Virus genome (UHGV): UHGV-0210343
Length of the DNA: 49,929 nucleotides
From: a virus
Strand: one strand, 5' to 3'
Within the stretch, counting starts at the first letter, position 1. Every line of letters begins with the position of its first letter. Shown here in pieces: positions 1-23,174 of the stretch. The notes beneath the pieces are model-generated. The model searched no databases. It was not told the origin of the DNA and saw nothing but the letters and a program-made list of their open reading frames with translations. A program made the translations under genes and the position numbers.

Positions 1-6
1 TTGAGT

Positions 7-681
7 ATGCCAGCAAAGATCACCATTGAAGAATTCATTTCTAGAGCCAAAGATGTTCACGGCAACAAGTATGACTACAATCTTGTAAAATTTAACAAAA
101 TTCATGACAAAATATCTATAACATGCCGATACCATGGTGAGTTTATGCAAAGGGCTTATAGTCACCTTGCTGGCTTTGGCTGTTCCATGTGCTCAGGAAA
201 GAAGAAAATGAACTCCACTGGATTTATCAGCAAGGCAATTTCTATCCATGGAGATAAATATGGTTACAAGAATGTTAAATATAAAAATAACCACACCCCT
301 GTGACAATAACATGCATGAAGCATGGTGATTTCAAGCAGACTCCATCCGCGCACACATCCGGACAAGGATGCCCATCTTGCGCAGCCAGGGGATTTGATA
401 GAAATAGAGTTTCTTTTGTGTATTTCTTAATGGGTGACGGCTCGATAAAAGTTGGCGTTACAAAGGATATAAAAAATAGGGTTAGGCACTTGAAGGTAGT
501 TACTCCATTTGATTTCGATCTCATACACAAAATAAAAACAGATGGAGTTAAGGCTCGTAAAATTGAAAAGTATTATCATAAGAAATATGAATCCAGTGGT
601 TTTAAAGGATTTAACGGTGCAACGGAGTGGCTTAAATACTCACCAGAACTTATGAATGAGATAATGAAAGAAGCCCCATAA
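7..681 (+). CDS. Free-standing homing endonuclease-like protein. The N-terminal half has two tandem Zn-ribbon-like repeats (HG.KY.Y..V......I.C..HG.F ... CxxC). The C-terminal half (FVYFLMGDGSIKVGVTKDIKNRVRHL) is a T5orf172/GIY-YIG-like domain. The ORF is open from position 1 and the ATG at 7 is the likely start.
   Basis: Repeat architecture and the T5orf172-like motif read directly from the translation; it lies on the opposite strand between tail genes. Confidence 0.5.
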   Translation: MPAKITIEEFISRAKDVHGNKYDYNLVKFNKIHDKISITCRYHGEFMQRAYSHLAGFGCSMCSGKKKMNSTGFISKAISIHGDKYGYKNVKYKNNHTPVTITCMKHGDFKQTPSAHTSGQGCPSCAARGFDRNRVSFVYFLMGDGSIKVGVTKDIKNRVRHLKVVTPFDFDLIHKIKTDGVKARKIEKYYHKKYESSGFKGFNGATEWLKYSPELMNEIMKEAP

Positions 682-3625: not shown

Positions 3626-4332
3626 TATTTTGCTCCTTTGCTTTTAGCGGCCTTTCTGGCGGCTTTCTCTTTCAGTTTCTGTTTATTCAGCTTGGCCCGT
3701 TCATAAGACGCATCATACTGCTCGCGCGTCATGCCTTCCGGTTCCGGGTATTTTGATTTTATCATTTGCTGATACTCGGTCATGGTCAGGTCTTCCGCTT
3801 CCTCGCGGGTGATGCCAAAGTGAGTGCGAGCTGAAATGATGTAATCCGACATTCTCAATTCACTGGTTGTGCGCTTTTGGTTTTCCGAGCGCTGAGGAAC
3901 CTTGAGCGGAGACTTGCCGATGATGCCATGCTCCATCAGGTTTCGAGCAATAATAATAATGTCATTTACTGGCATTCTTCCGGTGACGTACTTCACACCG
4001 CGCGGAGTTGGCTTCCATGACCCAATGAGCACCGAAATATCATCATCGCAACAGGACTGCATGATGAGACAGGCGGCGCTGAGCACTTTCTTACCATAGG
4101 CAGGGCGCGACAGGATTTTTGCCACCTGAATCTGCGCGCCATACGGCATTGACTGAATGGCGCCGAGTATGGCCGCGTATTCATAGCCATTAAGCGTAGC
4201 GTACAGCTCGACAATCTCTTTTGGTGAGCCAAGTTCATTCATCGCCGCAAATGAAGGCTTGAAGAAAAAAGACTTATCAGCCAGGGAGATGCGCATCTCT
4301 CCGATTTCTGTTAGCGGTGTGCGTTGTCTCAT
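3625..4332 (-). CDS. Tail assembly chaperone (gpG/GT-like position), 235 aa
   Basis: Placed immediately upstream of the tape measure gene with a basic, Lys-rich C-terminus; its own extended -10 promoter (TGGTATAAT) lies just upstream. Confidence 0.5.
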   Translation of the reverse strand: MRQRTPLTEIGEMRISLADKSFFFKPSFAAMNELGSPKEIVELYATLNGYEYAAILGAIQSMPYGAQIQVAKILSRPAYGKKVLSAACLIMQSCCDDDISVLIGSWKPTPRGVKYVTGRMPVNDIIIIARNLMEHGIIGKSPLKVPQRSENQKRTTSELRMSDYIISARTHFGITREEAEDLTMTEYQQMIKSKYPEPEGMTREQYDASYERAKLNKQKLKEKAARKAAKSKGAK

Positions 4333-4360
4333 GTCTAAATCCTGTTTTCATAATGATGTA

Positions 4361-4369
4361 ATTATACCA
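4361..4369 (-). promoter_or_regulatory. Extended -10 promoter (TGGTATAAT on minus strand) for the chaperone/tape-measure/tail-tip operon
   Basis: Perfect TGnTATAAT about 30 nt upstream of the 4332 start; back-to-back with a plus-strand promoter. Confidence 0.5.
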
Positions 4370-4415
4370 TTGACAGGGGGCGCAAGACTGACGTAGATTG
4401 AAAGCATAAGATGAT
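4370..4415 (+). promoter_or_regulatory. Plus-strand promoter(s): TTGACA-N18-TAGATT overlapping cTGACGTAGATTGA-N16-GATGAT
   Basis: Member of the recurring TGACGTAGATTGA promoter family; precedes the plus-strand Dam cassette. Confidence 0.45.
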
Positions 4416-4429
4416 TGAGGGTTTGACAT

Positions 4430-4564
4430 ATGAACGAGACTGATGCTGATTTGAGATTTTACATCGACCTTTACATCGATCAGGGCTACACCTATGAAGA
4501 GGCCCGCGTAAAGGCGATTTTGTTGCTGGCTAAGATTGGCGTAGTGGTGGAGGATAAGAGATGA
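4430..4564 (+). CDS. Small hypothetical protein (44 aa); ATGA overlap with the next gene
   Basis: First ORF after the promoter, translationally coupled to 4561..4953; there is no strong SD. Confidence 0.3.
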   Translation: MNETDADLRFYIDLYIDQGYTYEEARVKAILLLAKIGVVVEDKR

Positions 4565-4953
4565 GCACTGATTATAGCAAGATGAGTGATTTTGAAATAG
4601 ATAAGGCCGTCGCAGATGCGTTGGGTATTGATTACGATATCGCAATAATGTTGGTTAATCCGGTAGATAAAATCAACGGCAATCACGTTGAAGAGTACGT
4701 CAGGAAGAAAATAACCAGTAATGAAAAGCACTGGAAGCGCTTCTCGCCAACAAGAATACCTAACGATGCATGGCCGGTTATTGATGAGAACAATATTACC
4801 ATCATCAATGACAACTCCTCCCTTCGATTTGCAGTAAGCGAAGTTGTGGCCTATTTCAATGGCTCAAATAACATTTGGAGTGCTTATGAAAATGGGCTCA
4901 GGGCGGCAATGATTACATTCCTGAAAATGCAGGAGTCCAAAAATGCCAGTTAA
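4561..4953 (+). CDS. Hypothetical phage protein (130 aa) whose N-terminus (MSDFEIDKAVADALG) is reminiscent of the DUF2591 family
   Basis: Motif recalled from memory only; needs an HMM check. Confidence 0.35.
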   Translation: MSTDYSKMSDFEIDKAVADALGIDYDIAIMLVNPVDKINGNHVEEYVRKKITSNEKHWKRFSPTRIPNDAWPVIDENNITIINDNSSLRFAVSEVVAYFNGSNNIWSAYENGLRAAMITFLKMQESKNAS

Positions 4954-5095
4954 CAAAGACGATGAAGATGTGATATCTGCATATGCAGGCCAGCGCATAG
5001 ATATAAACTACGCGATAGCAATTCACCTCAGACGATCTGAGTTTATTGCTAATCTGATTTTGTGGGGCATCAAGAACAAGACGAGGAAGGCGTGA
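4943..5095 (+). CDS. Small hypothetical protein (50 aa); its stop overlaps the Dam start (TGATG)
   Basis: ORF with an ATG inside the previous gene's 3' end; tight coupling typical of phage operons. Confidence 0.3.
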   Translation: MPVNKDDEDVISAYAGQRIDINYAIAIHLRRSEFIANLILWGIKNKTRKA

Positions 5096-5796
5096 TGAAG
5101 TACATGGGAAGCAAGGCGAGATTAAAAAAATACATAATCCCATTAATGGATATTAAAGACAGGGTTTATTATGAGCCTTTTGCTGGAGGTATGAACATGA
5201 TAGACGGAGTGCATTGCGCCAGAGCAAGGTTTGCAAACGATAGTAATAAATATGTGATAGCAGCCTTTAAGATGCTCTGTTCTGGATGGCAGCCTGAGTT
5301 TATAACAAAAGACCAATATCATGAGCTTAAAAAAATGAATGGAGAGGACCATCTCATAGGATGGGCAGGAGTCGCCTGTTCTTACAGTGGCAAATGGTTC
5401 GGTGGGTATGCAGGTATCGTTGAAACCAGATCAGGAAGAAGAGATTACCAGGCTGAGGCAATAAAAAACGCAATCAAGCAGGTAAAAAATTTAAAAGGTG
5501 TTTTATTCTCAAGCCTTGACTATACAGAAATGTCAATAGAGTCAGGTTCTGTTGTTTATTGCGACCCTCCATACAAAGGAACAACTGGTTATAAGGATGG
5601 CTTTAATAGTGATGATTTTTTTGACTGGTGTCGGAGCATGGCAAAAGATAAGAGATGTGATGTTTATGTTAGTGAATATTCTGCGCCAGATGACTTTGAA
5701 TGTATTGCTGAATTTAACTTAAATAGCAGCCTTAGCGCCAATGGAAGATATGGCGGATCAAAGTCATCAATAGAGAAATTATTTAAAGTGAAATAA
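5095..5796 (+). CDS. dam: DNA N6-adenine methyltransferase (Dam family)
   Basis: N-terminal KYMGSKARL...YYEPFAGG (AdoMet motif I) and DPPY motif IV (VYCDPPYKGTTGY); SD GAGGAAGG upstream of the ATG at 5095. Confidence 0.85.
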   Translation: MKYMGSKARLKKYIIPLMDIKDRVYYEPFAGGMNMIDGVHCARARFANDSNKYVIAAFKMLCSGWQPEFITKDQYHELKKMNGEDHLIGWAGVACSYSGKWFGGYAGIVETRSGRRDYQAEAIKNAIKQVKNLKGVLFSSLDYTEMSIESGSVVYCDPPYKGTTGYKDGFNSDDFFDWCRSMAKDKRCDVYVSEYSAPDDFECIAEFNLNSSLSANGRYGGSKSSIEKLFKVK

Positions 5797-6574: not shown

Positions 6575-6619
6575 GTTTAGAATCCTCTGTGTTTAGCTAA
6601 ACAATCGCATTATATCATG

Positions 6620-6648
6620 TTGACAGGTTCTGATTGGTGGTGTAGATT
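6620..6648 (+). promoter_or_regulatory. Sigma70-like promoter TTGACA-N17-TAGATT directed at the tRNA cluster
   Basis: Consensus -35, 17-bp spacer and the TAGATT -10 shared with other plus-strand promoters in this genome. Confidence 0.5.
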
Positions 6649-7201
6649 TAACTTGCTGGTCTCAGAATGCAGGAAGATTGACAGGTTGCATTCGGATTGA
6701 CTGTTAATTTGAGGCGCCAGCAGCTATCAGGCAAGAGCATTAGGCAGACGGCAATCTTTGTTTTCAGACTAGCGAACTGTGAAATGCCGACATAGAATTG
6801 TGACGACGCTCGTCAGTGCTCTTTCCGATAGTTTTCGGTGCGACTTTGCGGGTTTTTAGAAACTGACCACAAAGATAAATGCAAACGAAGAAATGTATCT
6901 GGCAGTAGCCTAACGGCCAAACACCAGCAAGGTCTTCCGACTCCTTGTAAATGAATTCGGCGCATTGCGGCCCTGAGATGTGATTAATAAATCAGGGCAC
7001 ACAACAGGTAAGAGCATGTCAGGTACCATGCTGACTTATAGCAGGCGTCTAAGATGTGCTCTTTCCGTTGTGGTGAATGCGTAGGCTGATACGTTAGAGA
7101 CGGCACCCCTTGATGAGGACAGCGCTATCTCTGGAGAATAGTCTTGGGTACGTGTAATGCCAGAGAAAGCCGGAGATCAGCACCGGCCACCACAACACCC
7201 C

Positions 7202-7289
7202 GGATAGTTGGCTGAGAGGCCGAAAGCAGTCGGTTGCTAACCGATAAACCGGAAACGGTTCACAGGTTCGAATCCTGTACTATCCGCCA
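7202..7289 (+). tRNA. tRNA-Ser (anticodon GCU), type II with long variable arm
   Basis: Hand-folded: 7-bp acceptor GGATAGT/ACTATCC, anticodon loop TTGCTAA, variable hairpin AACCG-GAAA-CGGTT, T-arm ACAGG-TTCGAAT-CCTGT, encoded CCA. Confidence 0.8.
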
Positions 7290-7295
7290 CATTCA

Positions 7296-7372
7296 GCACC
7301 ATTAGCTCATCAGGATAGAGAAATTGCCTTCTAAGCAATCGGTAACTGGTTCGAATCCAGTATGGTGCACCA
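7296..7372 (+). tRNA. tRNA-Arg (anticodon UCU)
   Basis: Acceptor GCACCAT/ATGGTGC, anticodon loop CTTCTAA, T-arm ACTGG-TTCGAAT-CCAGT, encoded CCA. Confidence 0.8.
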
Positions 7373-7375
7373 AAT

Positions 7376-7452
7376 TCCCGTTTAGCTTAACTGGTTAAAG
7401 CACCCGACTCATAATCGGATGATTACAGGTTCGAATCCTGTCGCGGGAACCA
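7376..7452 (+). tRNA. tRNA with CAU anticodon (elongator Met, or Ile2 if lysidine-modified)
   Basis: Acceptor TCCCGTT/CGCGGGA (one mismatch at 7-66), anticodon loop CTCATAA, T-arm ACAGG-TTCGAAT-CCTGT, encoded CCA. Confidence 0.75.
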
Positions 7453-7612: not shown

Positions 7613-7640
7613 GCCGGTCAGCGGCCTTTTTTATTCACCA
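7613..7640 (+). terminator. Rho-independent terminator (GGCCGgtcaGCGGCC + TTTTTTATT) ending the tRNA transcript
   Basis: GC hairpin followed by a T-run on the plus strand. Confidence 0.65.
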
Positions 7641-8014
7641 AAAACAACCCTCAGCAACAATTCATAAACAGGCCGTTGCTCTGTCGTAAGCGTCGGGCGA
7701 CCAAGCGGCGCCTGTAGCTCAATCATGCCAATACAACTATCAACTGGATGCTCTTTGATATATGAGATGACATCAAGCGCTTTTGCTTTGGTTTCCTCAA
7801 TGTTGTACTGCCCTTGCTGGCCGACGATGTACAGCGAGAAATAGAAGTCATTGGCAAGCGATTTGCTGACGGCGGTTCCACCATTTGACTGAAGTACCAT
7901 AAAGCGCTCAGTGCCAACGCCGGTATCATTCCAGAACTCAAGCTGAGATGTCCAGCCGGTATAAAGTCCAGCATCCTCAAGATACTGGTCAACAAGCTCA
8001 AGCATGTCTCTCAT
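7631..8014 (-). CDS. Neck / tail-completion protein (127 aa), putative
   Basis: Position between the capsid module and the major tail protein; small structural-gene string with overlapping stops and starts. Confidence 0.4.
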   Translation of the reverse strand: MRDMLELVDQYLEDAGLYTGWTSQLEFWNDTGVGTERFMVLQSNGGTAVSKSLANDFYFSLYIVGQQGQYNIEETKAKALDVISYIKEHPVDSCIGMIELQAPLGRPTLTTEQRPVYELLLRVVFGE

Positions 8015-8427
8015 TTCAATGTCATCTCTTTTTTGATTATCTGGTCGACCAGTTCGCGCGTATTCTCTCCGGCTTTAAGCAGGAATTTAGGCTCGCCGCC
8101 AGTATCCCATACGTTTCCTTTGCCTTTGAGCCTGCCGGTACGAGGTGTGTTTGTGCCAAGCAGTTTACCAGGCGCGTTGTGGACGTACAGGGCGTAATTT
8201 GCAGAATAGCCAATCTTGCCGGTTATTCTGGTGCCGTTCACTTCTACAGTGTCATACTGGCTGTTTAGCAGCACGGACGTTGCCACAGGCGTCATGGCTG
8301 CCGACTCGGTCCTTATGATGTAGTTCGCGCTCTTGATGGCTGCCACGGCCTTCTCGCCAGTTATCTCGCCAACAATCTGCTGCGTGCGCTTAATGGCCTC
8401 CTGTATGCCTCGCATTTTGGCTGCCAT
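8011..8427 (-). CDS. Head-tail joining protein (138 aa), putative
   Basis: Synteny only. Confidence 0.4.
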   Translation of the reverse strand: MAAKMRGIQEAIKRTQQIVGEITGEKAVAAIKSANYIIRTESAAMTPVATSVLLNSQYDTVEVNGTRITGKIGYSANYALYVHNAPGKLLGTNTPRTGRLKGKGNVWDTGGEPKFLLKAGENTRELVDQIIKKEMTLK

Positions 8428-8430
8428 GCA

Positions 8431-8775
8431 TTACCCCGTTACCAGTGCGAAATCTGGAAGATCATTGCGATCGAACGTGTTTCCGTAGTTAACCACATTG
8501 CGAATCTGGTCAGCGCCAGCGGTAAGCGGGTCTGGCTCGGTGATGGTGCCAATCATAATAAAGTCGCCAACCGATGCATCCTGGTATTCTGTCCAGAATG
8601 TATTTTTCTGCGCAATCTCGTTTCCGGTTGCGCCGGTGTTAAGGTCTTTATCGAATCCGTAATCGCACATGAGAGGCTCAGGAGCTGCATAAGTTGGCTT
8701 GCCATACTTATCCTTGCCTGTCAGCCTCCAGATTGTGCAGGGCTGCGTATAGCTCCATCTGGCGATTGCTGTCAT
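8431..8775 (-). CDS. Head-tail adaptor / neck protein (114 aa), putative
   Basis: Synteny only. Confidence 0.4.
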   Translation of the reverse strand: MTAIARWSYTQPCTIWRLTGKDKYGKPTYAAPEPLMCDYGFDKDLNTGATGNEIAQKNTFWTEYQDASVGDFIMIGTITEPDPLTAGADQIRNVVNYGNTFDRNDLPDFALVTG

Positions 8776-8893
8776 GATGCGGCCTTAATAGTAAACATCC
8801 AGCGAGGGATTTGAATGCGCAGTAATACCAGAAGGTAGATAATACCCAGGCACCATTTGCGAATTTGAACATTGACAATTAATTTTCCAGTTT

Positions 8894-9288
8894 TCATCTG
8901 CATCTACTCCCGGTAACAACACGAAACCACGGCTTGGCGCTATCTTCAGGGTCCTCAACAAGGTCGCCGGTGCAATCAGCGGTATCAAGCAGCTTCATCT
9001 GATTGTAAAGTGCCACCCACGGCTTGCTTCCGTATGCGAATGACTGGGATGCACCTGATGGCGCATGCTGGCTTGTGACGTATCGGCCAGCGGTATTCGC
9101 AGCGATAAGGACTGAAGCCCACAGCATGATTGCGTCCTGTTTGCACGTGTCTCCGGGGTAGCTGGTCTCCAGGCATTCCGTAATTGCCGCGAGCAGGCAA
9201 AGAATGCCGGTTGCATCCGCTTCCGTGATGGTCATGCCACGGGATGCCATTGCTGCAACAAGCTCACTTGCTGTTGGTGCTGCCATTT
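8894..9288 (-). CDS. Head-tail connector-like protein; the ORF is open to 9367 but the likely start is MAAPTASE at 9288
   Basis: Synteny; the alternative upstream start would overlap the previous gene extensively. Confidence 0.4.
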
Positions 9289-9551
9289 CTTTTTGTCTCC
9301 CGGATTTTCCACCACATTTCGAAAAGGTTTTTTGCCACCAATGACAGCGCGCCAAGGATAGACGCAACGGCGGCCCATTCTGTGATTGAGTGAGGAATCA
9401 TTGACTCAATGTATGACTGTGCTATAGGCGTTTGCTCTGCCACCTTCAGGCCGAGGCCAGTGCCGATTGAGGTGTAACCTGCCTTGTCGATGACTTGCCC
9501 GACAGTTCCACTAATTATCTGGTTTGCGGCGTGCTGAAACGCGTCTCTCAT
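9264..9551 (-). CDS. Small structural or assembly protein (95 aa) with a hydrophobic C-terminal segment
   Basis: First gene of the minus-strand neck block; TGATAAAAT extended -10 about 150 nt upstream (9697-9705). Confidence 0.4.
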   Translation of the reverse strand: MRDAFQHAANQIISGTVGQVIDKAGYTSIGTGLGLKVAEQTPIAQSYIESMIPHSITEWAAVASILGALSLVAKNLFEMWWKIRETKRNGSTNSK

Positions 9552-9712
9552 TAATGAATCTCCGAATGATGAACTTCCAGCATCTGTACACCTGAACCAG
9601 CGAAAACGCTATGACGATAACGCCGATTGCTATATCCAATTTCGCCGCCTTACGTTTTTCAGGACGGAACAGCGCGGGGTTGATTGTGCTGAATTAATTT
9701 TATCATAAACTG

Positions 9713-9741
9713 TTGACGTAGATTGATGGTGTCGCTATAGT
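9713..9741 (+). promoter_or_regulatory. Promoter TTGACGTAGATTGA...-N17-TATAGT driving the plus-strand ParB/DGQHR cassette
   Basis: Family motif with a good -10. Confidence 0.55.
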
Positions 9742-9782
9742 GATGACGTAGAAACAACAATAAATGTTAGAGGTGATGAGAA

Positions 9783-9992
9783 ATGTTAGGTTATGAATAC
9801 CCGAAGTTGGAAGTTGGTGACGTTTACGACATGGGCGACGGAGTTCGCGGCAAAGTTACGGCTGCATGGAGGAATGGTACGGCAAATATGCTGGTTCTCG
9901 ACGGACCAACAAAGGGAATTACATGGTGCGTTAACGGCCAGTCAACTAGTGTATATACAAAAATTAAAGATGACTGCAAAGAACGTCGATAG
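9783..9992 (+). CDS. Hypothetical protein (69 aa)
   Basis: First ORF of the cassette. Confidence 0.4.
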   Translation: MLGYEYPKLEVGDVYDMGDGVRGKVTAAWRNGTANMLVLDGPTKGITWCVNGQSTSVYTKIKDDCKERR

Positions 9993-10010
9993 AATCATAG
10001 GGGAATCAAA

Positions 10011-10115
10011 TTGATTCGTGAACAAGACGCAAAAGAATGGCGCAAATTCAAAATCAAACTTGCATTAATCGTTATCGGATTCGCCATTGCCAGTGCAGTC
10101 GCCTTATCAAAGTGA
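10011..10115 (+). CDS. Possible small single-pass membrane peptide (34 aa, TTG start)
   Basis: GGGG spacer then TTG; hydrophobic LALIVIGFAIASAVAL helix. Confidence 0.2.
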   Translation: MIREQDAKEWRKFKIKLALIVIGFAIASAVALSK

Positions 10116-10150
10116 TTGCGAAGTGAAAAAAATCCAATGCGGAGGTGAAG

Positions 10151-10810
10151 ATGCATGATCTTATTAGCCAGTCATCCGACGAGGTGAAATACCGTGAACC
10201 ATTTTTTGTGCCTGTTGGCGAACTGGTTGTGAGTGAGCCACATCCAGAAAAAGAGGTTGTGGACTTTTTCGTTAGAGAAATGCAGTCCGGCATGAGAATG
10301 CCTCCTGTTGAGGTTAAGCGACTTGAGGATGGGAAGTTTACCGTCGTCATCGGCAAGGCAAGAGCCATTGCTTCAATGATGGTTGAATCAATGATGGTTG
10401 AATCAAGAGTAGATGAGGAGAAACTTGTACGGTGCAGGATGTATGAGTACAAAAACCTTATCCCAATTTTCAACTCAATACAGCGCAGCTCCGGTGATGT
10501 TAATGGTTTGTTTTTTAGAATTCGTGGATATAAATTTCTAAAAATGACAGGCATGACTGGCAAGGAGATATCAAGAAAATGTAAAAGGAATATGGATGAT
10601 CTCATCAAATGCATGATTGTAGATTCTATGCCATGTCACATTAAAAAAATTATCTTGAACGGCACTCTGTCACCATCTCTGGCGGTGGTCGTTGTGAAAA
10701 AGTTTGGTGCGCATGAAGCACATAGGGCAATAAGTAAAGCCTCAAATGACCCTTCCTTATGGGAAGGAAAGAGAATTACCCCAAGAATGATAATGAATCA
10801 TATTGATTAA
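10151..10810 (+). CDS. ParB/Sulfiredoxin-fold (ParB N-terminal nuclease-like) domain protein
   Basis: VPVGELVVSEPHPEK...VDFFVREMQSGMRMPPVEV...GKFTVVIGKARAIAS matches the ParBc consensus, with GKAR in place of the GERR Arg finger; GGAGG SD. Confidence 0.55.
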   Translation: MHDLISQSSDEVKYREPFFVPVGELVVSEPHPEKEVVDFFVREMQSGMRMPPVEVKRLEDGKFTVVIGKARAIASMMVESMMVESRVDEEKLVRCRMYEYKNLIPIFNSIQRSSGDVNGLFFRIRGYKFLKMTGMTGKEISRKCKRNMDDLIKCMIVDSMPCHIKKIILNGTLSPSLAVVVVKKFGAHEAHRAISKASNDPSLWEGKRITPRMIMNHID

Positions 10811-10830
10811 ACATAACTGGAATTCATAAG

Positions 10831-11646
10831 ATGACATCTCTCGGAAAAATTTACTCAGACAAAGAAACTCGCGGCGGAATCGTGGTCAACAAAGGTTATC
10901 AGGTTCCTGTCGACCAGCTTTACCTTGAGCCAGGCTACAACATCCGCGAAGCCGATGAGCAGCACGTTGAATACTTCGCGCAGTGCTGGGAATCAGGCCA
11001 GCCAATCCCGGCGTTAACTGTTATTCCTGATGCTGACGGAAAGCGCATCAAGATTCTTGACGGCCAGCATCGTTATCTTGGCGCATTGCGTGCCATTGAG
11101 CGCGGCGTGCCAATTGCGCGCATTGAGTGCAAAGACTTTACCGGCGATGAAGCGGATAAAATCGCCTTCATGGTGTCTTCCAGTCAGGGTAAGCAGCTCG
11201 ACCCGCTTGAGCGTGCGAAGGCTTATGTGCGTCTGAAAGGTTTTGGATGGACGAATGAAGAAATCGCCAAGAAGGTCGGTCGCTCAGTTTCTGATGTACA
11301 GATGCACCTGTCACTTGGTGATGTACCTGATGCCATCAAGCAGCGCATTAACGCAGGGCAAATCAGCTATGCCAACGCCGTTGCAGTCGCACGTGAGCAT
11401 GGCGATGATGCCGTTAACGTTATTGATGCTGCCGTTGAGGAAGCAAAAGCACAGGGCAAGGATAAGGTGACGGCCAAAACGCTCAAAGCCAAAAAAGTTA
11501 AGCCGATTGACCGCCTGATTCAGCTGCTGAAAGAAGCAGATCATATGGTGGTTACTGAGGGTCATGTGGCACAGGAGACCGAGGAGTTTTTGCGCCTTCC
11601 ATCTGCTGAGTTGAGTGAAGTGCTGGCGATTCTGGAGAAGCTGTGA
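10831..11646 (+). CDS. DGQHR-domain protein (DndB-like branch of the ParB-fold superfamily)
   Basis: LEPGYNIRE...ILDGQHRYLGALRA carries the eponymous Asp-Gly-Gln-His-Arg motif of the DGQHR/DndB family. Confidence 0.55.
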   Translation: MTSLGKIYSDKETRGGIVVNKGYQVPVDQLYLEPGYNIREADEQHVEYFAQCWESGQPIPALTVIPDADGKRIKILDGQHRYLGALRAIERGVPIARIECKDFTGDEADKIAFMVSSSQGKQLDPLERAKAYVRLKGFGWTNEEIAKKVGRSVSDVQMHLSLGDVPDAIKQRINAGQISYANAVAVAREHGDDAVNVIDAAVEEAKAQGKDKVTAKTLKAKKVKPIDRLIQLLKEADHMVVTEGHVAQETEEFLRLPSAELSEVLAILEKL

Positions 11647-11840
11647 TGATTACAATTGGCACTGCTGCAAAAAACATAAAAGAAGGCGATCACATCCTAA
11701 TGCGAGACGGCGTGGCTCGCCAGGTGGAGAAAATTCACTATCAGGAGGATATAATCGCATTTGAAATGAAGCGTTACGAAGAAAAAACAAGGCATTTCTT
11801 ATTTTATGATGAATGCGCAAACGTGGTGGAGAGTTGGTAA
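11643..11840 (+). CDS. Hypothetical protein (65 aa)
   Basis: ATGA-coupled ORF. Confidence 0.4.
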   Translation: MMITIGTAAKNIKEGDHILMRDGVARQVEKIHYQEDIIAFEMKRYEEKTRHFLFYDECANVVESW

Positions 11841-12013
11841 TGAATCCCGAACAATTCATAGAGAAAAACCTGCGCGAAAAACTGCCAGGCATCGACAACG
11901 CGGCCATAGAGGCTGCGTTACAACACTATCGACAATGCCGAAGCGTTACAGGAAAATCATTTGATGAGATGCTGTATATTGCAAAGCAGCATTACATTAA
12001 GAACAAAAAATAA
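11840..12013 (+). CDS. Hypothetical protein (57 aa; start MNPEQF)
   Basis: TAATG stop-start overlap with the previous ORF. Confidence 0.4.
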   Translation: MNPEQFIEKNLREKLPGIDNAAIEAALQHYRQCRSVTGKSFDEMLYIAKQHYIKNKK

Positions 12014-12038
12014 CTGTTATACCAATGAGGATTTAGTG

Positions 12039-12290
12039 ATGAAAAAGAATGGTGTTTTTACTCAGAAGGACGGCTCAAAAGTTGCCCGTCTTGGTGATGG
12101 TTACGTTGGCATTAAATTTGGCTATTGCCATGGTGAAAAGTTAATAGCCATTGCGAATAGCATAAATCGTAGGGTGCCGGGCGATGAAGTTGATGATATT
12201 GATGAGGCGGAAATTTATATCACATTCAAAGACAACGCCTCAATTCAGCGGCTGATTGATGGCCTCGTCAATCTCCGCGACCATAAGTAA
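12039..12290 (+). CDS. Hypothetical protein (83 aa; start MKKNGVF)
   Basis: SD-like GAGGAT upstream; ends at the terminator. Confidence 0.4.
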   Translation: MKKNGVFTQKDGSKVARLGDGYVGIKFGYCHGEKLIAIANSINRRVPGDEVDDIDEAEIYITFKDNASIQRLIDGLVNLRDHK

Positions 12291-12312
12291 ACAAAGCCCC
12301 TTTCGGGGCTTT
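12291..12312. terminator. Bidirectional terminator AAGCCCCtttcGGGGCTT
   Basis: Perfect hairpin with T-tracts on both strands. Confidence 0.7.
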
Positions 12313-12319
12313 TCTTTTA

Positions 12320-13138
12320 TCACGGAAGATAAGCGTCATCCTCAAACCACGAAACGTAAGCATTGATATTTTGTGCCGCAGTATCCAGTGACGTAATGCG
12401 CAACAGATAGGTAGTATTAGGCGCCATGATGACCTGTTCACCAAGTTTTGCCTGTGAATTACCCTGCCCCTGGTTTGATGCGTTCCCTTCACTATACGTC
12501 GCCGCCACCGTCAGCTGCCCAATGCTTGTCACAGTAGAGCCAGTCAGAAGCTGCGCTGTTGCAGTATGCGGCGCGATATCATTTGGGTTATTAATCTCCG
12601 CAGCGGTGCCGCCAGTCGCAACCGCTCCGCGATAAATTGACGCGATAACACCCTTTCCGGTGTAGCCGATAATGCGCTGGTTAAAAATAACCTGCTTAGC
12701 ACCAGTGATGAAAATGCTATCGAGGTTGGCGGAACCTGCAACCGCCTCAACGCGCCGTGATGCGGTAAACAGCTTGCCTTGTTTATTCGCTCTCTCTATG
12801 TATGATTGCACTGTAAGGCTGCTGGCCGGTGGTGCGATATCAGCTCGCCAGATGAGGACGCGCAATGATGCCACTGCCGCTGGTAACTGGCTCTTGACCA
12901 CCTTCAGGCGCAAGGCGACGCCATAATAATTATTATTGTTGACGTCAATCCAGTAATCGCCAGAGTCAAAAGGTGAAACCTTAACGGCAATAGCGCCACT
13001 TGTGAGCGGCGTGTAATTCCCTGATGCATCCAACGGCACAATGCTGACCTGTAGCGCCGTCCAGTCAGGTGACATCCTTTCACCCAACAACACCTCTCCA
13101 TCAGTCGGAGTGGTAAAAATTTCGTATCTGATAGCCAT
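12320..13138 (-). CDS. Probable virion structural protein (272 aa from MAIRYE; the ORF is open to 13306)
   Basis: The terminator hairpin at 13148-13178 lies inside the longer ORF, so the downstream ATG at 13138 is the likely start. Confidence 0.4.
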   Translation of the reverse strand: MAIRYEIFTTPTDGEVLLGERMSPDWTALQVSIVPLDASGNYTPLTSGAIAVKVSPFDSGDYWIDVNNNNYYGVALRLKVVKSQLPAAVASLRVLIWRADIAPPASSLTVQSYIERANKQGKLFTASRRVEAVAGSANLDSIFITGAKQVIFNQRIIGYTGKGVIASIYRGAVATGGTAAEINNPNDIAPHTATAQLLTGSTVTSIGQLTVAATYSEGNASNQGQGNSQAKLGEQVIMAPNTTYLLRITSLDTAAQNINAYVSWFEDDAYLP

Positions 13139-13373: not shown

Positions 13374-13464
13374 GATAAATTCCTCTATTTTGATGTTGAT
13401 TAATTATAACACATAGCGCATTGGTGTGATAAGATGGCAAAACCAAATCAGTAAGGATTACATC

Positions 13465-14262
13465 ATGACTACAAGAAAAGAGCTGGCTATTAAAGCCAGA
13501 GGGCAGGGATTAAAGCAGTTTATCTGCACTGAACTCCCTTGCGCAAAGTGTGGTTGCGTCACCTTTTTTACTGCTGGAGGAGGAAGATGTAAGGATTGTT
13601 TGTATGAGTTCACCAGAGCTAAGCGCGCAACAAGCGAGGGGCAGGAAAAGGAGCGTATTAGCCGAAAAAAATCATATGACAAATATTACTCCGTGCCTGA
13701 AAACAGGAAAAAGAAATCAGAAAAAGATAAAGCCTACATAAGGCGCGTAAAGTCTGATCCCTCAAGGCGTGAGGCGTTCCTGGAGAAGAAAAGGAAGATT
13801 TATCGTAAATGGTATTATTCTGAGCATGGGAATGCAAAAGCACTACAAAATGTAAAGCAATGGATGAATGAAAATCCACACCATAGACTACTTAGGAAGG
13901 CATTAGAGAGGATGGACATCAAGATCGGTGCTATTCTTTCCGATTCAAGCGTGGATGAAGTGCTTGGTTACTCAAAGGATGAATTCATTAGCCATATAGA
14001 GTCAACAATGGAGCCGTGGATGAGCTTTGATGATAGAAGCTCCTGGCATATTGACCACATTCTTCCTGTGAACTGGTTTGTTAAAAATGGGCTTGTGTAT
14101 CCAGAGTTAGTTAATTGCTTGCATAACCTTAAAGCTGAGCCTGCCGAGTACAATTTCAAAAAGAATAGCCGGTGGCTAAGGGATGATATTACGGAATGGG
14201 AGTGGTGTTATATGCTTCAGTGGATGGTTTATGGCGAGATAAGGTATAAAGAAGGGGGCTAA
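13465..14262 (+). CDS. HNH homing endonuclease
   Basis: C-terminal SWHIDHILPVNWF...LHNL HNH motif with Zn-ribbon Cys pairs near the N-terminus; AAGGAT SD; free-standing, on the opposite strand from its neighbours. Confidence 0.65.
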   Translation: MTTRKELAIKARGQGLKQFICTELPCAKCGCVTFFTAGGGRCKDCLYEFTRAKRATSEGQEKERISRKKSYDKYYSVPENRKKKSEKDKAYIRRVKSDPSRREAFLEKKRKIYRKWYYSEHGNAKALQNVKQWMNENPHHRLLRKALERMDIKIGAILSDSSVDEVLGYSKDEFISHIESTMEPWMSFDDRSSWHIDHILPVNWFVKNGLVYPELVNCLHNLKAEPAEYNFKKNSRWLRDDITEWEWCYMLQWMVYGEIRYKEGG

Positions 14263-14276: not shown

Positions 14277-15365
14277 TTACAGCGCGGTTTGCGTGCCGTA
14301 GCCGTTAAACACTTTGCTTAGGCCGTTATGATCGCGCCGAATTTGCAGACCCATAGCAGCCCACGTTAAAAAGTTGAAGTTAGCGTGCGGCGTGGTACGC
14401 GGCTCTGCATAGGTGGACACCGGCTGAGCGACGCGAGGGCGAATATACAGCGCATTCTTCACGTAGCCGACAAAGTGGTTGCCGGTCAGCTTGAAGTTGG
14501 TGCCGATAGACGCGATGCGGCCAACGTTGCCAGTTTTGCCGAATGCGAGGATGTAATCCTCAATGGTGCCGCCTTTGAAGCCTGCCGCGTTGGAGTACGG
14601 ACGGCTGAAAGAACGACGCACAGACGGAGAAACCCACAGAGTAACCGGCTCGAACACGTTCTGTGCATCCAGAACCGCCTGGAAATCCTGGTTGAAGAAC
14701 TCAACGATTTCATCAGGGGTTGCAGTTTGCAGGTCGATGTTCAGCGCACCAGTGCCGGAGGCGCTCAGGTTGAGCTGCACAGTGTTCGGGTGGTTAGTGA
14801 TACCGTAAGCAGTATAAACACCGTTCACGTTCAGGCTTGCATCGCCGACCAGCAGATAATCAGCCATGTCTGCGCGCAGGTTGAAGGTGGTGCTTTCCTG
14901 GTCATCAATCAGCGGGTCGAAACCTTCAGACTGCATACCCAGCAGCTCTCGCCACTCGCGGCCATAACCGGTTTTGAAGATCGGGATTACATCGCCGCTG
15001 TAGGAATAGCGGGTTTTATCCAGGTCTTCAGGCTCCTGACCGGAGATGGTGCGCACAACCTTGCCAGCATCGGAGGCCATGCGGCTGATTGCCACGGTCT
15101 TGCCGATGTTGATGTTGGTCGCCAGCGTCATCAGGTCGGCCATCATGTCCATGCCGGACTCGTTGCGGAATACACGGGTGGTCACGTCGTCCACTTCGCG
15201 CCAGTAGTCTTTCGTTACCAGTGCGGTGGCGTTTACGCCGTACTCTTTCGCCAGAGCGTTTTCACCATTGATGAAAACCTTGCGGTCAACGGTCAGGTGG
15301 CGCCACTGCTCTCTAACCACCTGCGAGTTGGTGATCAGGCCTTTCGTAAAGATAATCTTTTCCAT
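14277..15365 (-). CDS. Major capsid protein (362 aa)
   Basis: Size and position after a scaffold-like gene and a small head protein; followed by a terminator, as expected for a highly expressed capsid gene. Confidence 0.7.
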   Translation of the reverse strand: MEKIIFTKGLITNSQVVREQWRHLTVDRKVFINGENALAKEYGVNATALVTKDYWREVDDVTTRVFRNESGMDMMADLMTLATNINIGKTVAISRMASDAGKVVRTISGQEPEDLDKTRYSYSGDVIPIFKTGYGREWRELLGMQSEGFDPLIDDQESTTFNLRADMADYLLVGDASLNVNGVYTAYGITNHPNTVQLNLSASGTGALNIDLQTATPDEIVEFFNQDFQAVLDAQNVFEPVTLWVSPSVRRSFSRPYSNAAGFKGGTIEDYILAFGKTGNVGRIASIGTNFKLTGNHFVGYVKNALYIRPRVAQPVSTYAEPRTTPHANFNFLTWAAMGLQIRRDHNGLSKVFNGYGTQTAL

Positions 15366-19615: not shown

Positions 19616-19641
19616 ATTGACTAATTGACGTAGATTAGTCA
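19616..19641. promoter_or_regulatory. Divergent promoter/operator: 9-bp inverted repeat TTGACTAAT-N8-ATTAGTCAA embedding TTGACGTAGATT
   Basis: Perfect palindrome centred between the divergent transcription units. Confidence 0.5.
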
Positions 19642-19665
19642 AGATGATTTCACAGGAGAGCGACA

Positions 19666-22445: not shown

Positions 22446-23174
22446 TTAGTCCTCGCGGCTGAATTCTTTGTGATGCCTTATTCTAACATCTTTCACCCAA
22501 TCACTGGCCTCATCTATGTTGTCAAAGCGTCTCTCTGCAACCAGACGCCTTGACGCATAAACTCTAGCCTTCCATTGCGAGGTCCTTTTCTCCCAGCATA
22601 CACCCTTAACGCCAGAGGTGTTGCGAGCACTGGTTCCCTTGTTTTGCTGGTTTTGGCAAAAACTTGCCAGCCTAAGATTCTCAATCCTGTTATCAGTTCG
22701 CACGCAGTTTATGTGATCAATCTCATCTGGCGGCCAAACCCCATAAACCATGAACCATGCCAGCCTGTGCAGCAGGTATCTTTTGCCTTGGATTTGGCAT
22801 TCCAAATATCCTTGTTTTGTAAGGCTTCCAACTTGCTTTCCAATGGTATTGCGAATGGTTGTATTCTGAAGCCAGAAGAACTTACCGGTGACTTTGTCAT
22901 ACCTGACAAAGTCAGACACCTCATTCCCAATAGCCTTACTTTCACACCTTTTTGCTGACCGTCTGCCGTGCTGGGTCCTGGCGCATTTATCGCAGCCACC
23001 ATGCTTGCCATTTAGGTGCGTATCAGGATGGGTGGCAAAATCACCATGCACTTTGCACGTTATTGTTATTTTATTTTTCTTGCCATTGTAGGCGCATGAA
23101 AGGTAAGAAAATCGATTCCCATGCCTTGCTTTGGCCGATTCAACAAATTGATCGGTGGTTATTTTTTTACTCAT
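22446..23174 (-). CDS. HNH homing endonuclease with an AP2 DNA-binding domain and N-terminal Zn-ribbon repeats
   Basis: HRLAWFMVYG...IDHIN..RTDNRIENLRL (HNH_3); GVKGVCWEKRTSQWKARV (AP2); N-terminal HGNRFSY...KITITCKVHGDF repeat like the ORF at 7..681. Confidence 0.7.
   Translation of the reverse strand: MSKKITTDQFVESAKARHGNRFSYLSCAYNGKKNKITITCKVHGDFATHPDTHLNGKHGGCDKCARTQHGRRSAKRCESKAIGNEVSDFVRYDKVTGKFFWLQNTTIRNTIGKQVGSLTKQGYLECQIQGKRYLLHRLAWFMVYGVWPPDEIDHINCVRTDNRIENLRLASFCQNQQNKGTSARNTSGVKGVCWEKRTSQWKARVYASRRLVAERRFDNIDEASDWVKDVRIRHHKEFSRED

Follow-up and report, generated by a model that had tools for sequence, protein, structure and literature searches.

The gene cassette described here is a conserved accessory operon of a virulent Roufvirus-like siphophage, driven by host RNA polymerase and running against the late structural genes. 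Its main gene encodes a DNA-binding protein of the ParB/KorB type, here called protein B, which is ordinary and nearly universal in this phage group. The only unusual part of the cassette is the gene for protein A, a rare, fast-evolving and shortened copy of B. The window analysed was a stretch of 49,929 nucleotides, UHGV virus genome UHGV-0210343, and the positions of the features are collected in Table 1.

Table 1 Features of the cassette and of the tail-gene promoter region, with positions in the window
Feature	Position	Strand	Description
Candidate operator	6590..6603		Perfect 14-bp palindrome TGTTTAGCTAAACA; outside the cassette coordinates
Cassette promoter	9713..9741	+	Sigma-70 type, TTGACG-17-TATAGT, 10/12 matches; extended -35 TTGACGTAGATTGA
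Direct repeat D1	9744..9752	+	Second copy of TGACGTAGA, right behind the -10 element
First gene	9783..9992	+	69 aa; variable slot of the cassette
34-aa gene	10011..10115	+	Starts with TTG; predicted to be hydrophobic; relatives have a 38-aa homologue
Gene of protein A	10151..10810	+	219 aa; divergent, C-terminally shortened paralogue of B; ParB N-domain, HTH, no C-terminal domain
Repeat D6	10368..10397	+	In-frame 15-bp tandem duplication in A (MMVES MMVES)
Gene of protein B	10831..11646	+	271 aa; orphan ParB/KorB-type protein; HMM matches, AF2 model
64-aa gene	11646..11840	+	Start overlaps the stop of B (TGATG); variable slot
57-aa gene	11840..12013	+	phrog_4439, profile match 1e-16
83-aa gene	12039..12290	+	RBS GAGGA ahead of the ATG
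Hairpin	12293..12312		GC-rich, 8-bp stem, 4-nt loop; terminator score on both strands

The plus-strand block (9783-12290) is bounded on both sides by minus-strand structural genes, with the neck/connector genes (7631-9551) on the left and a phrog_5335 gene (12320-13138) and the major head gene (14277-15365) on the right. The initial annotation had described a self-contained plus-strand operon, and the promoter-like site, the terminator hairpin and the minus-strand flanks bear this out. It had also assigned the cassette to a T1-like phage, which was wrong, and had seen it as an insertion into the neck-tail block. The cassette in fact sits between the head and neck modules, and it was not inserted: in Roufvirus, Skatevirus, Segzyvirus and their relatives the cassette, its promoter and B share one and the same location. 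The promoter is kept in the related loci L001-L007 and L016, and together with the 5' leader (9600-9779) it is 82-96 % identical in relatives from several genera. A scan for the promoter consensus alone did not rise above chance (4 sites found, 5.7 expected); the extended -35 of the cassette promoter belongs to a motif family, TTGACGTMRA, with 11 matches in the window against 0.32 expected. The TGACGTAGA repeat copy behind the -10 element, kept in relatives with one mismatch in L001, is possibly an operator. The hairpin terminates both the cassette and the convergent phrog_5335 gene, and the DNA flanking it is conserved in relatives.

Protein B consists of an N-terminal nucleotide-pocket domain, an HTH_ParB domain and a small alpha/beta C-terminal domain, in this order. 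Pfam gave HTH_ParB (PF17762) at residues 122-203 with 43.4 bits (cut-off 22.6) and the KorB domain (PF08535) with 27.9 bits (cut-off 22.3); the ParBc model of the N-terminal domain was not listed for B at E ≤ 1. B matched phrog_1033 over residues 3-270 (E 2.1e-87), and in PDB sequences it matched Spo0J (1vz0, 1.4e-11; 6e-16 with the family profile) besides ParB, Noc and KorB. The match to the TIGR00180 family of ParB/RepB/Spo0J partition proteins, 43.4 bits, is below the cut-off of 58.45. The AF2 model of B (pLDDT 85.2) had KorB 8qa9 as its top Foldseek match (E 1.5e-9, target-normalised TM 0.70, rmsd 3.5), with ParB 6t1f (ParB-parS) and Noc 7nfu among the further best matches, and the sequence of the DNA-binding domain resembles chromosomal ParB more closely than KorB. 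Judged by these sequence matches and by the predicted model, B is an orphan protein of the ParB/KorB/Noc class with the ParB-CTPase fold. That the cassette encodes two consecutive ParB/Srx-fold proteins, as had been proposed, is likewise supported by sequence matches and AF2 models of both A and B.

The pocket residues of B are conserved and unusual, namely N37-x-R39, D77-G-x-H-R81 and S117-S-Q-G120. Invariant in the B family are G56 and P60 in the loop of box I, G78 and R81 of GxxR in box II, and His45, and the invariant columns cluster at the pocket elements. The string DGQHRY aligns with GERRY/F of ParB, and SSSQGK stands at the position of box III. Only G and the last R of the ParB GxxR are kept; the canonical GERRxR and ENLQR residues are missing, the Glu position of GERRxR is Gln or His, and the catalytic Glu and Asn are not conserved. 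As the Glu of GERRxR is crucial for CTPase activity (PMC11790492), and because the canonical residues are missing, ParB-like clamp cycling by B is uncertain. Nucleotide preference is not predictable from sequence or AF3 (PMC12704722).

The Asp-Gly-Gln-His-Arg signature that had been pointed out is literally present at B residues 77-81, and membership of the DGQHR/DndB family does not follow from it. The match of B to TIGR03187 reached 17.9 bits against a cut-off of 58.85 and spanned only 46 residues around the motif (61-106). No DndB family was found for B in Pfam or NCBIfam at E ≤ 1, nor were other Dnd models such as TIGR03233, and no cassette protein had a match in PADLOC. Within the B family D, G, H and R are invariant, while Q is replaced by H in members of at most 56 % identity. 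Because Q varies and the motif aligns with the GERR of ParB, the string is a superfamily feature and is not diagnostic of DndB. Neither the window nor the annotated relatives yielded dndCDE, dpd or ssp genes, in line with the earlier statement that ParA, Dnd and Dpd/TGT partners are absent. With a sub-cut-off HMM match, no dnd, dpd or ssp neighbours and an HTH of the ParB type, a DndB-like identity of B was rejected. The two share the ParB/Srx superfamily and a D-G-Q-H-R at the phosphate-binding loop, and they may work alike, since DndB too is a nucleotide-modulated DNA-binding repressor (PMC12704722).

B is the constant gene of the operon and its position is conserved across genera. At 80 % identity or above it was found in 192 phage records, compared with about 203 records containing the capsid gene at 60 % or above, and it is present in about 95 % of the relatives. 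Its dN/dS of 0.009-0.015 indicates very strong purifying selection. In Klebsiella phage VLCpiS13d only the first 25 codons of B are left, which shows that at least one isolate can do without it. The initial annotation had said that a ubiquitous core gene pair with a known packaging role would speak against its reading. Half of this holds: B is indeed nearly ubiquitous in its own phage group, a known role was not found for it, and we found no experimental study of any member of this phage family in the literature.

Five small genes accompany A and B, of 69, 34, 64, 57 and 83 aa, where four had been counted before. Companion-gene counts were taken over 66 related loci. DNA-metabolism genes are the conserved neighbours of B: the phrog_4439 gene, its most constant companion, lies downstream of it in 56 of the 66, and a RusA-like gene is present in 43, although none occurs in this window. 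The 34-aa gene has a weak match to phrog_31975, is present in 34 of the loci and is 81-89 % identical in DNA to its equivalent in L001-L003 and L005. The 64-aa and 83-aa genes, found in eight and nine loci, respectively, had no family match. The first gene had no match in Pfam, PHROG, NCBIfam or PADLOC and a homologue in two phage records only. Its slot is filled in relatives by a P22_Y8K6-like gene, an anti-restriction gene (phrog_14587), a DUF5420 gene or an A2-type ParB paralogue.

Protein A, to judge from sequence, arose by duplication of B and has since diverged. Its start was placed at ATG 10151, where the ORF finder had listed GTG 10145. A matched phrog_1033 at residues 14-199 (E 2.6e-11) and B itself with 25 % identity in BLASTP (5e-11). 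In hhalign (99.2 %, E 8.8e-20, 199 columns) A 7-212 aligned with B 12-216, and the alignment stops at the start of the C-terminal domain of B. The AF2 model of A (pLDDT 82.5) had Noc and ParB as best matches, although this fold is not fully independent evidence, because the model alignment included B-family sequences. A has retained the fold and the GxxR phosphate motif (G68-K-A-R71), and its HTH has a recognition helix unlike that of B; the C-terminal domain, the motif D and H, the N-x-R segment and box III have been lost. Residues G47, P51, P52, G68 and R71 are invariant in both A lineages. With a dN/dS of 0.23-0.28 A evolves about 20 times faster than B, a value from which we conclude that it is a functional gene. 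It is very rare: only three close clusters were found in 5.8 billion proteins, and only two representative clusters at E < 1e-10 in 1.84 billion. In all four known A1 contexts A is directly upstream of B. The MMVES duplication is missing from P0001-P0003 and falls in a low-confidence loop of the model (residues 85-87).

The view that the pair fits no described system could not be maintained, as B belongs to a recognised class, the orphan ParB-CTPase-fold proteins of mobile elements (Kaljevic et al. 2025, PMC12704722; phrog_1033). Like these it is encoded without ParA on a mobile element and keeps the GxxR P motif, and we saw no difference between B and this class; its fold is common to many viral proteins. 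A departs from the typical orphan proteins: it has lost most of its pocket residues along with the C-terminal domain, and it stands in tandem with a full-length paralogue. With chromosomal ParB/Spo0J and Noc, its best sequence matches, B shares the fold of N-domain and HTH_ParB, but it stays under the TIGR00180 cut-off, is without ParA, ParA-binding motif and multi-copy parS, and has its setting in a virulent phage. Noc shows that a duplicate of ParB can take on a new function (PMC12704722), and the same is proposed for A. Two ParB-fold proteins of which one misses a domain of the other are also found in the GmrS1/GmrSD2 doublets (PMC12373910), and in the phage 5mYOX system a ParB-fold protein is a partner or activator with no part in segregation (PMC13229309). 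Those proteins differ in having DUF262/HNH or no HTH and in belonging to host defence or DNA-modification systems, whereas the present cassette has neither nuclease nor dioxygenase.

Several other functions were weighed. Given the 'ParB-like partition protein' name of B in RefSeq and its sub-threshold TIGR00180 match, we asked whether it is part of a genuine partition system that serves a plasmid-like carrier state (pseudolysogeny or a phage-plasmid). This is very improbable: no ParA was found in the annotated relatives or in the window, of which 74 ORFs were scanned for ParA-like families; no integrase, repressor or plasmid replication module was found; and the phages were isolated as lytic. 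The N-terminus of B, MTSLGKIY, with SLGKIY at the relevant place, departs from (L/F/I)G(K/R)G(L/F/I), the motif by which ParA is bound (PMC12704722). It has also been suggested by annotation ('ParB-like nuclease domain' in some relatives) that the N-domain is a DNase, which would degrade host or competitor DNA or process phage DNA together with a RusA-like resolvase. The invariant D-G-x-H-R and His45 could make an active site, and resolvase and endonuclease VII genes are often neighbours. To this idea we give little credence, as B comes nearest to DNA-binding clamps among solved structures, the word 'nuclease' goes back to historical naming in Pfam, no metal-binding motif of nuclease type was identified in B, and this window has no RusA-like gene to act with.

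A role as accessory to DNA modification, in which B would load or activate a DNA-modifying enzyme like the ParB-like activator of 5mYOX or the ParB-methyltransferase fusions, is similarly unlikely. A C5-cytosine methylase starts at the stop codon of B in BUCT541 and eight of the 66 related loci, ParB-fold/methyltransferase fusions are frequent in phages (PMC12704722), and a ParB-dependent 5mYOX has been described (PMC13229309). The window itself, said initially to contain no methyltransferase, encodes a D12-class, Dam-like methylase at 5062-5796. However, this gene lies in an operon separate from the cassette and has no counterpart in any of 80 related loci, whereas B is constant. Most relatives, like this window, have no modifying enzyme beside B, and the 5mYOX-associated ParBs are without a DNA-binding domain (PMC13229309), whereas B has a full HTH_ParB. 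The initial annotation had offered anti-defence as one of several options; here A, B or both would antagonise host defences (Dnd, Ssp, Dpd or others with ParB-fold or DUF262 domains) or serve them as decoys. DUF262 and ParB-fold domains do occur in SspE, DndI and GmrSD (PMC11662687, PMC12373910), and the cassette is a hot spot of host-takeover genes, with the anti-restriction phrog_14587 in the first slot of Segzyvirus LPSTLL and methylases downstream of B in eight of the 66 loci. A is patchy and fast-evolving, as is often the case for counter-defence genes. B, on the other hand, is near-core, and a dN/dS of about 0.01 is atypical of an arms-race gene. Apart from the superfamily motif, neither protein specifically resembles a component of the Dnd, Ssp or Dpd systems, neither PADLOC nor the DndB/DGQHR models claim the proteins, and no support for the idea was found in the literature. 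A decoy function thus finds no support for B and is possible only for A; overall we regard anti-defence as improbable.

We hold with moderate confidence that B regulates or organises phage DNA as a nucleotide-gated DNA-binding protein, and that A is its modulator or an accessory regulator. The structure and homology of the genes, the fold, the pattern of conservation and the selection described above are supported directly; that B binds a nucleotide and dimerises, which DNA is targeted, what regulation results and whether A and B interact are matters of inference. The small C-terminal domain probably dimerises B; the dimer would recognise a specific site in the phage DNA and then repress, spread or clamp. 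In this way B may act on the regulation or organisation of phage DNA, the timing of a late promoter being one example, and its role would be neither replicon partition nor the countering of a defence system. A may be a modulator that competes for the N-domain of B or caps it, or an accessory regulator that binds a different DNA site. KorB and BisD, ParB-like CTP clamps that regulate promoters, provide a precedent (PMC11790492, PMC12409273).

KorB of the IncP-1 plasmid RK2 is a CTP-dependent sliding clamp of the ParB family (PMC11790492) and a global repressor. B resembles it in the order of N-terminal domain, HTH and C-terminal domain, in the Pfam KorB match and in the best structural match, and B too has its gene on a mobile element, with promoters as its probable targets. 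A further likeness is the palindrome at a phage promoter, with half-sites of the KorA/KorB type (TTTAGC). This TGTTTAGCTAAACA palindrome lies in the +1 region of the promoter of the major tail gene, between its extended -10 (TGATATAAT) and RBS, and back to back with a plus-strand promoter, TTGACA-17-TAGATT, facing tRNA genes. It is a single site per genome, conserved in all Roufvirus-like relatives, and Skatevirus-like relatives have at the same position the O_B-spaced site GTTAGC-N-GCTAAC. RK2, in comparison, has 12 O_B sites. The site type co-varies with the B subtype, a correlation confounded by shared ancestry, and the palindrome is absent from Citrobacter phage K1M, which has B, and from more distant phages with B (at most 73 % identity). 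It is identical to the oligonucleotide of the RK2 KorA operator (O_A) used in PMC11790492, so the exact match of the phage is to the KorA site and not to a KorB site, and no KorA-like protein was found in the window. We therefore treat the palindrome as an intriguing, unproven candidate site, and its link to B is weak. B differs further from RK2 KorB in having DGQHRY for GERRxR and SSSQG in box III, and in being without an IncC/ParA partner, a recognisable KorA or TrbA partner and the long disordered N-terminal peptide.

It is a rather speculative extension, and in our estimate an unlikely one, that B is the phage analogue of KorB, a nucleotide-gated clamp loading at the TGTTTAGCTAAACA palindrome, with A as a clamp modulator evolved from ParB. 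From the back-to-back tail and tRNA promoters, B would time late-gene expression over a distance, and A, as a headless, dimerisation-defective paralogue, would cap or lock B and so take the part that KorA and TrbA have towards KorB. If this were true, the KorA of a resident IncP-1 plasmid could bind the tail promoter of the phage and interfere with infection.

The sequence represents approximately the entire genome of a siphophage of about 50 kb, in which short plus-strand operons alternate with minus-strand late genes, and the region 9713-12312 is one such operon. The initial annotation had described it as a plus-strand cassette with two ParB-fold genes, and this observation was correct, with minor corrections only, when the start codons were checked against relatives and ribosome-binding sites. 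The two proteins are here called B and A, A being a shortened paralogue of B. The same annotation regarded the cassette as inserted and the phage as T1-like; the comparison with relatives contradicts both. The nearest relatives are the Klebsiella phages BUCT541, MK54, 6991 and RCIP0103 and the Roufvirus pIS4-A, followed by Skatevirus, Segzyvirus, Buchananvirus and Shuimuvirus, none of them T1-like, and in the relatives the operon with B is always found at the same place. B at at least 80 % identity occurs in 192 phage records, compared to about 203 with the capsid protein at at least 60 % identity. B is therefore near-core and has a constant operon position between the head and neck genes.

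Coordinates of the cassette, its flanks and other features of the genome
Feature	Position	Strand	Remark
Endonuclease gene	1-681	+	free-standing
NinX-like gene	4561-4953	+	
Dam-like D12-class N6-adenine DNA methyltransferase	5062-5796	+	
Palindrome TGTTTAGCTAAACA	6590-6603		candidate operator
Tail-gene promoter, extended -10	6606-6614	minus	TGATATAAT
TTGACA-17-TAGATT	6620-6648	+	faces tRNA genes
tRNA cluster Ser-GCT, Arg-TCT, Met-CAT	7202-7452		
Tail terminator	7631-8014	minus	left flank, neck/connector genes
Neck/connector gene	8011-8427	minus	left flank
Neck/connector gene	8431-8775	minus	left flank
DUF7370/phrog_786 gene	8894-9286	minus	left flank
Membrane protein (phrog_13738)	9264-9551	minus	left flank
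TTGACG-17-TATAGT	9713-9741	+	cassette promoter
69-aa product	9783-9992	+	cassette gene
34-aa product	10011-10115	+	cassette gene
A, 219 aa	10151-10810	+	cassette gene
B, 271 aa	10831-11646	+	cassette gene
64-aa product	11646-11840	+	cassette gene
57-aa product (phrog_4439)	11840-12013	+	cassette gene
83-aa product	12039-12290	+	cassette gene
GC-rich hairpin	12293-12312	both	terminator score on each strand
phrog_5335 gene, 272 aa	12320-13138	minus	right flank, conserved
Endonuclease VII/HNH-like ORF (phrog_1035)	13426-14262	+	
Major head gene	14277-15365	minus	right flank
Endonuclease gene	22446-23174	minus	free-standing

B exceeded the Pfam cut-offs for both HTH_ParB (43.4 bits) and KorB (27.9 bits) and matched phrog_1033 ('ParB-like partition protein') with an E value of 2e-87, while its TIGR00180 score of 43.4 was under the cut-off of 58.45. 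Among solved structures the best sequence match was Spo0J 1vz0 (1.4e-11, or 6e-16 with the family profile), followed by ParB, Noc and KorB. In the AF2 model of B, derived from 42 homologues (pLDDT 85.2), an alpha/beta domain at the N-terminus is followed by a helical HTH domain, a long helix and, at the C-terminus, a small domain that is again alpha/beta. Foldseek placed KorB 8qa9 at the top of the PDB matches (TM 0.70, rmsd 3.5 over 211 columns), with ParB-parS 6t1f and Noc 7nfu next; the fold is widespread in viral proteins.

The literal DGQHR string of B (residues 77-81) aligns to GERR(Y/F) of ParB. D77, G78, H80 and R81 are invariant across the B family, and Q79 is replaced by H in more distant members; SSSQGK takes the place of the ParB box III ENLQRE. 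A DndB-like assignment had been proposed for B. The DGQHR family model TIGR03187 reached 17.9 bits where 58.85 are required, and covered 46 residues only, neither a DndB model nor PADLOC matched B, and no Dnd, Ssp or Dpd neighbours were found. Based on the HMM scores and the negative DndB and PADLOC searches, we assign B to the ParB/KorB/Noc type, with a variant phosphate loop, and not to the DndB family. It is one of the orphan ParB-CTPase-fold proteins of mobile elements, a class already described (PMC12704722); for these phages no functional study of B was found in the literature. The most conserved columns of the B family are the pocket-forming positions, a pattern suggestive of a functional ligand site. 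The nucleotide preference is not predictable, and hydrolysis-driven cycling is uncertain because the catalytic residues of the ParB CTPases are replaced.

A had no Pfam, NCBIfam, PDB-sequence or PADLOC match, and matched phrog_1033 at 2.6e-11. Its sequence is clearly homologous to that of B, with 25 % identity over 176 residues in BLASTP (E 5e-11) and a probability of 99.2 % (E 8.8e-20) when the two families were compared with hhalign, where residues 7-212 of A correspond to 12-216 of B. A ends where the C-terminal domain of B starts, and since it lacks this domain it would be unable to form the same closed dimer. The AF2 model (pLDDT 82.5) matches Noc, ParB and KorB, but the alignment contained B-family rows and the fold is thus not independent evidence. 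A has a 4-residue deletion at the position of N37-x-R39 of B, I-G-K-A-R in place of D-G-Q-H-R, no counterpart of SSSQG and a different HTH recognition helix. As the GxxR P motif (G68 and R71 are invariant in both A lineages) and the box-I-like G...PP loop are kept, A may still bind a nucleotide. In the A of this phage a stretch of 15 bp is also duplicated in tandem and in frame (MMVES MMVES, 10368-10397); the duplication is missing from the three closest homologues and sits in a loop that was modelled with low confidence.

Two lineages of A were recognised, the type found here (A1) and a second one (A2) about 27 % identical to it. A1 had no match in 50,697 phage records and forms only three clusters in 5.8 billion proteins; in all recovered contexts (loci L005, L006 and L041 of related phages) it lies directly upstream of B. 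A2 likewise comprises three clusters and occupies the first operon slot in RCIP0103 and VLCpiS13d. When 1.84 billion representatives were searched exhaustively with HMMER, E<1e-10 was reached by these two lineages alone; the remaining matches were B-like ParB proteins with DGHHR (three of them G-H-x-R). A is an unannotated, rare and shortened paralogue, a new member of the ParB-CTPase fold. Selection on the two genes is sharply different, with dN/dS values of 0.23-0.28 for A and 0.009-0.015 for B, so that A is a functional gene with a rate of evolution about 20 times that of B.

Operon content was counted in 66 IMG/VR loci with enough flanking sequence, all of which contain B, as this was the selection criterion. 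A1 was upstream of B in one of them. The 57-aa phrog_4439 gene was present in 56 loci, a RusA-like resolvase, missing from the present genome, in 43, and a 34-38-aa gene in 34. No other gene accompanies B as constantly as the phrog_4439 gene; variable genes are placed between the two, and the phrog_4439 product could be a partner of B. The first slot is variable and holds a P22_Y8K6-like gene, an anti-restriction gene, a DUF5420 gene, A2 or the 69-aa gene seen here. A natural B knock-out was found in the Klebsiella phage VLCpiS13d (L004, locus 3947-5400), where B is reduced to its first 25 codons and the A2-type paralogue is retained as the first gene of the operon.

A C5-cytosine methylase directly follows B in 8/66 loci; in some relatives, such as BUCT541 (L002 and L009; locus L002 5816-6838), it begins at the B stop codon and is followed by an endonuclease VII gene. 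This arrangement suggests translational coupling of B to a DNA-modifying enzyme in these loci. The present genome had been stated to contain no methyltransferase, which overlooked the Dam-like enzyme; this lies next to the NinX-like gene in a separate plus-strand cassette and is missing from 80/80 related IMG/VR loci. The phrog_1035 ORF separates the phrog_5335 gene from the major head gene, and in L005 a gene is present at its place. The other free-standing endonuclease genes are an HNH_3 gene and a T5orf172/MUG113 gene, and the scattered endonuclease genes look like homing endonucleases.

The cassette promoter matches the consensus at 10/12 positions, although the consensus scan by itself was not above chance (4 sites, 5.7 expected). 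The promoter is supported by its conservation and by its recurring extended -35: promoter and leader are 82-96 % identical across relatives of several genera, even with a different first gene, and the extended -35 TTGACGTAGATT is found again at 19625, 23222 and 29590 (plus strand) and 34670 (minus strand), with a one-mismatch copy at 4389 and a second copy at 9744. The pattern TTGACGTMRA had 11 matches in the window, compared to 0.32 expected. The promoter-like sites have TTGACGTAGATT(GA) in common; a palindromic variant, TTGACGTCAA, occurs in three copies (12939, 24286 and 31797), and the motif at 19617-19642 is bracketed by the 9-bp inverted repeat TTGACTAAT...ATTAGTCAA. A search for parS-like repeats or palindromes within the cassette gave weak chance-level pairs only, except for the direct repeat TGACGTAGA at the promoter.

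Seven perfect palindromes of at least 14 bp were found in the window, including TGTTTAGCTAAACA. Among about 45 Roufvirus-like relatives examined, all have kept this palindrome, three of them with a single mismatch. In the sense of the major tail gene, the palindrome follows the extended -10 at a distance of 5 bp, in the +1 region of the tail-gene promoter, and precedes the start codon by 15 bp; on the opposite strand it is 16 bp upstream of the -35 of the promoter facing the tRNA genes, so that the two promoters stand back to back around it. The same 14 letters make up the RK2 KorA operator (O_A) oligonucleotide of McLean et al. (PMC11790492), and the O_A core GTTTAGCTAAAC is also given in PMC2680271. 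With seven palindromes, the probability that one of them coincides with a specified 14-bp palindrome is about 4e-4, a post hoc figure for which several ParB-family operators were eligible. Skatevirus-like phages have GTTAGC-N-GCTAAC at the equivalent position, with the spacing of the KorB operator (O_B) and the core TTAGCNGCTAA.

The palindrome tracks B in Roufvirus-like and Skatevirus-like phages, but this is confounded by ancestry. A link to B is disfavoured by several findings: there is only one candidate site per genome, a KorA-like protein was not found, K1M has B and no such palindrome, loci with B of at most 73 % identity lack it, and in sequence the HTH of B resembles that of chromosomal ParB more than that of KorB. 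No KorA/TrfB-like or other small partner regulator was found among 54 small ORFs, apart from a weak MarR/wHTH match elsewhere in the genome. In the window, BUCT541, K1M and LPSTLL no further palindrome or O_B-like copies were above chance beyond the single site and a copy in tRNA-Met, a one-mismatch O_A core (GTTTAGCTTAAC) at 7380. We regard TGTTTAGCTAAACA as a speculative target of B, a lead and not a result. The Rfam search returned the three tRNAs and nothing else, and the approximately 550 bp ahead of them (6650-7200) had no convincing ORF and no Rfam match. In the Escherichia phage Alux-21 (L008), a B homologue of 49.5 % identity occurs in a different, P2-like context together with several AACAAT-N-ATTGTT palindromes (about 14057, 17800, 19182 and about 19925), one just upstream of the ParB-like gene; this may be the protein's own site.

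In the best-supported reading, B is a dimeric member of the ParB/KorB/Noc class that binds DNA sequence-specifically and is modulated by a nucleotide, and on the phage DNA it would have the role of a regulator or organiser. An anti-defence role had no direct support, and an arms-race function is disfavoured by the near-core status of B, its extreme constraint and its DNA-metabolism neighbours. A partition role, as the phrog_1033 name would have it, is disfavoured by the absence of ParA; B has no ParA partner and lacks the motif for ParA binding. Direct support was likewise not found for partition, for a nuclease or for an accessory to DNA modification. The simplest reading of A is that of a neofunctionalised duplicate of B, comparable to Noc as a duplicate of ParB. 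It is possible that A modulates B via the common N-domain, or that it binds a DNA site of its own.

Phages and plasmids commonly carry orphan ParB-fold proteins, but for those of virulent phages a role is known in almost no case. The present group of phages is a clear-cut example, with a near-core B under very strong constraint, the natural knock-out VLCpiS13d, two independent A lineages and one testable candidate operator; the main points of interest are the pairing of A with B and the palindrome identical to the KorA operator. For annotation, a literal 'DGQHR' string is insufficient for a DndB-like label, and calling B a 'partition protein' is probably misleading in this group. If B is not a nucleotide-gated regulator of late transcription, the present result is routine annotation. 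If it is, lytic phages would join plasmids and ICEs as elements on which ParB clamps exert control over long distances.
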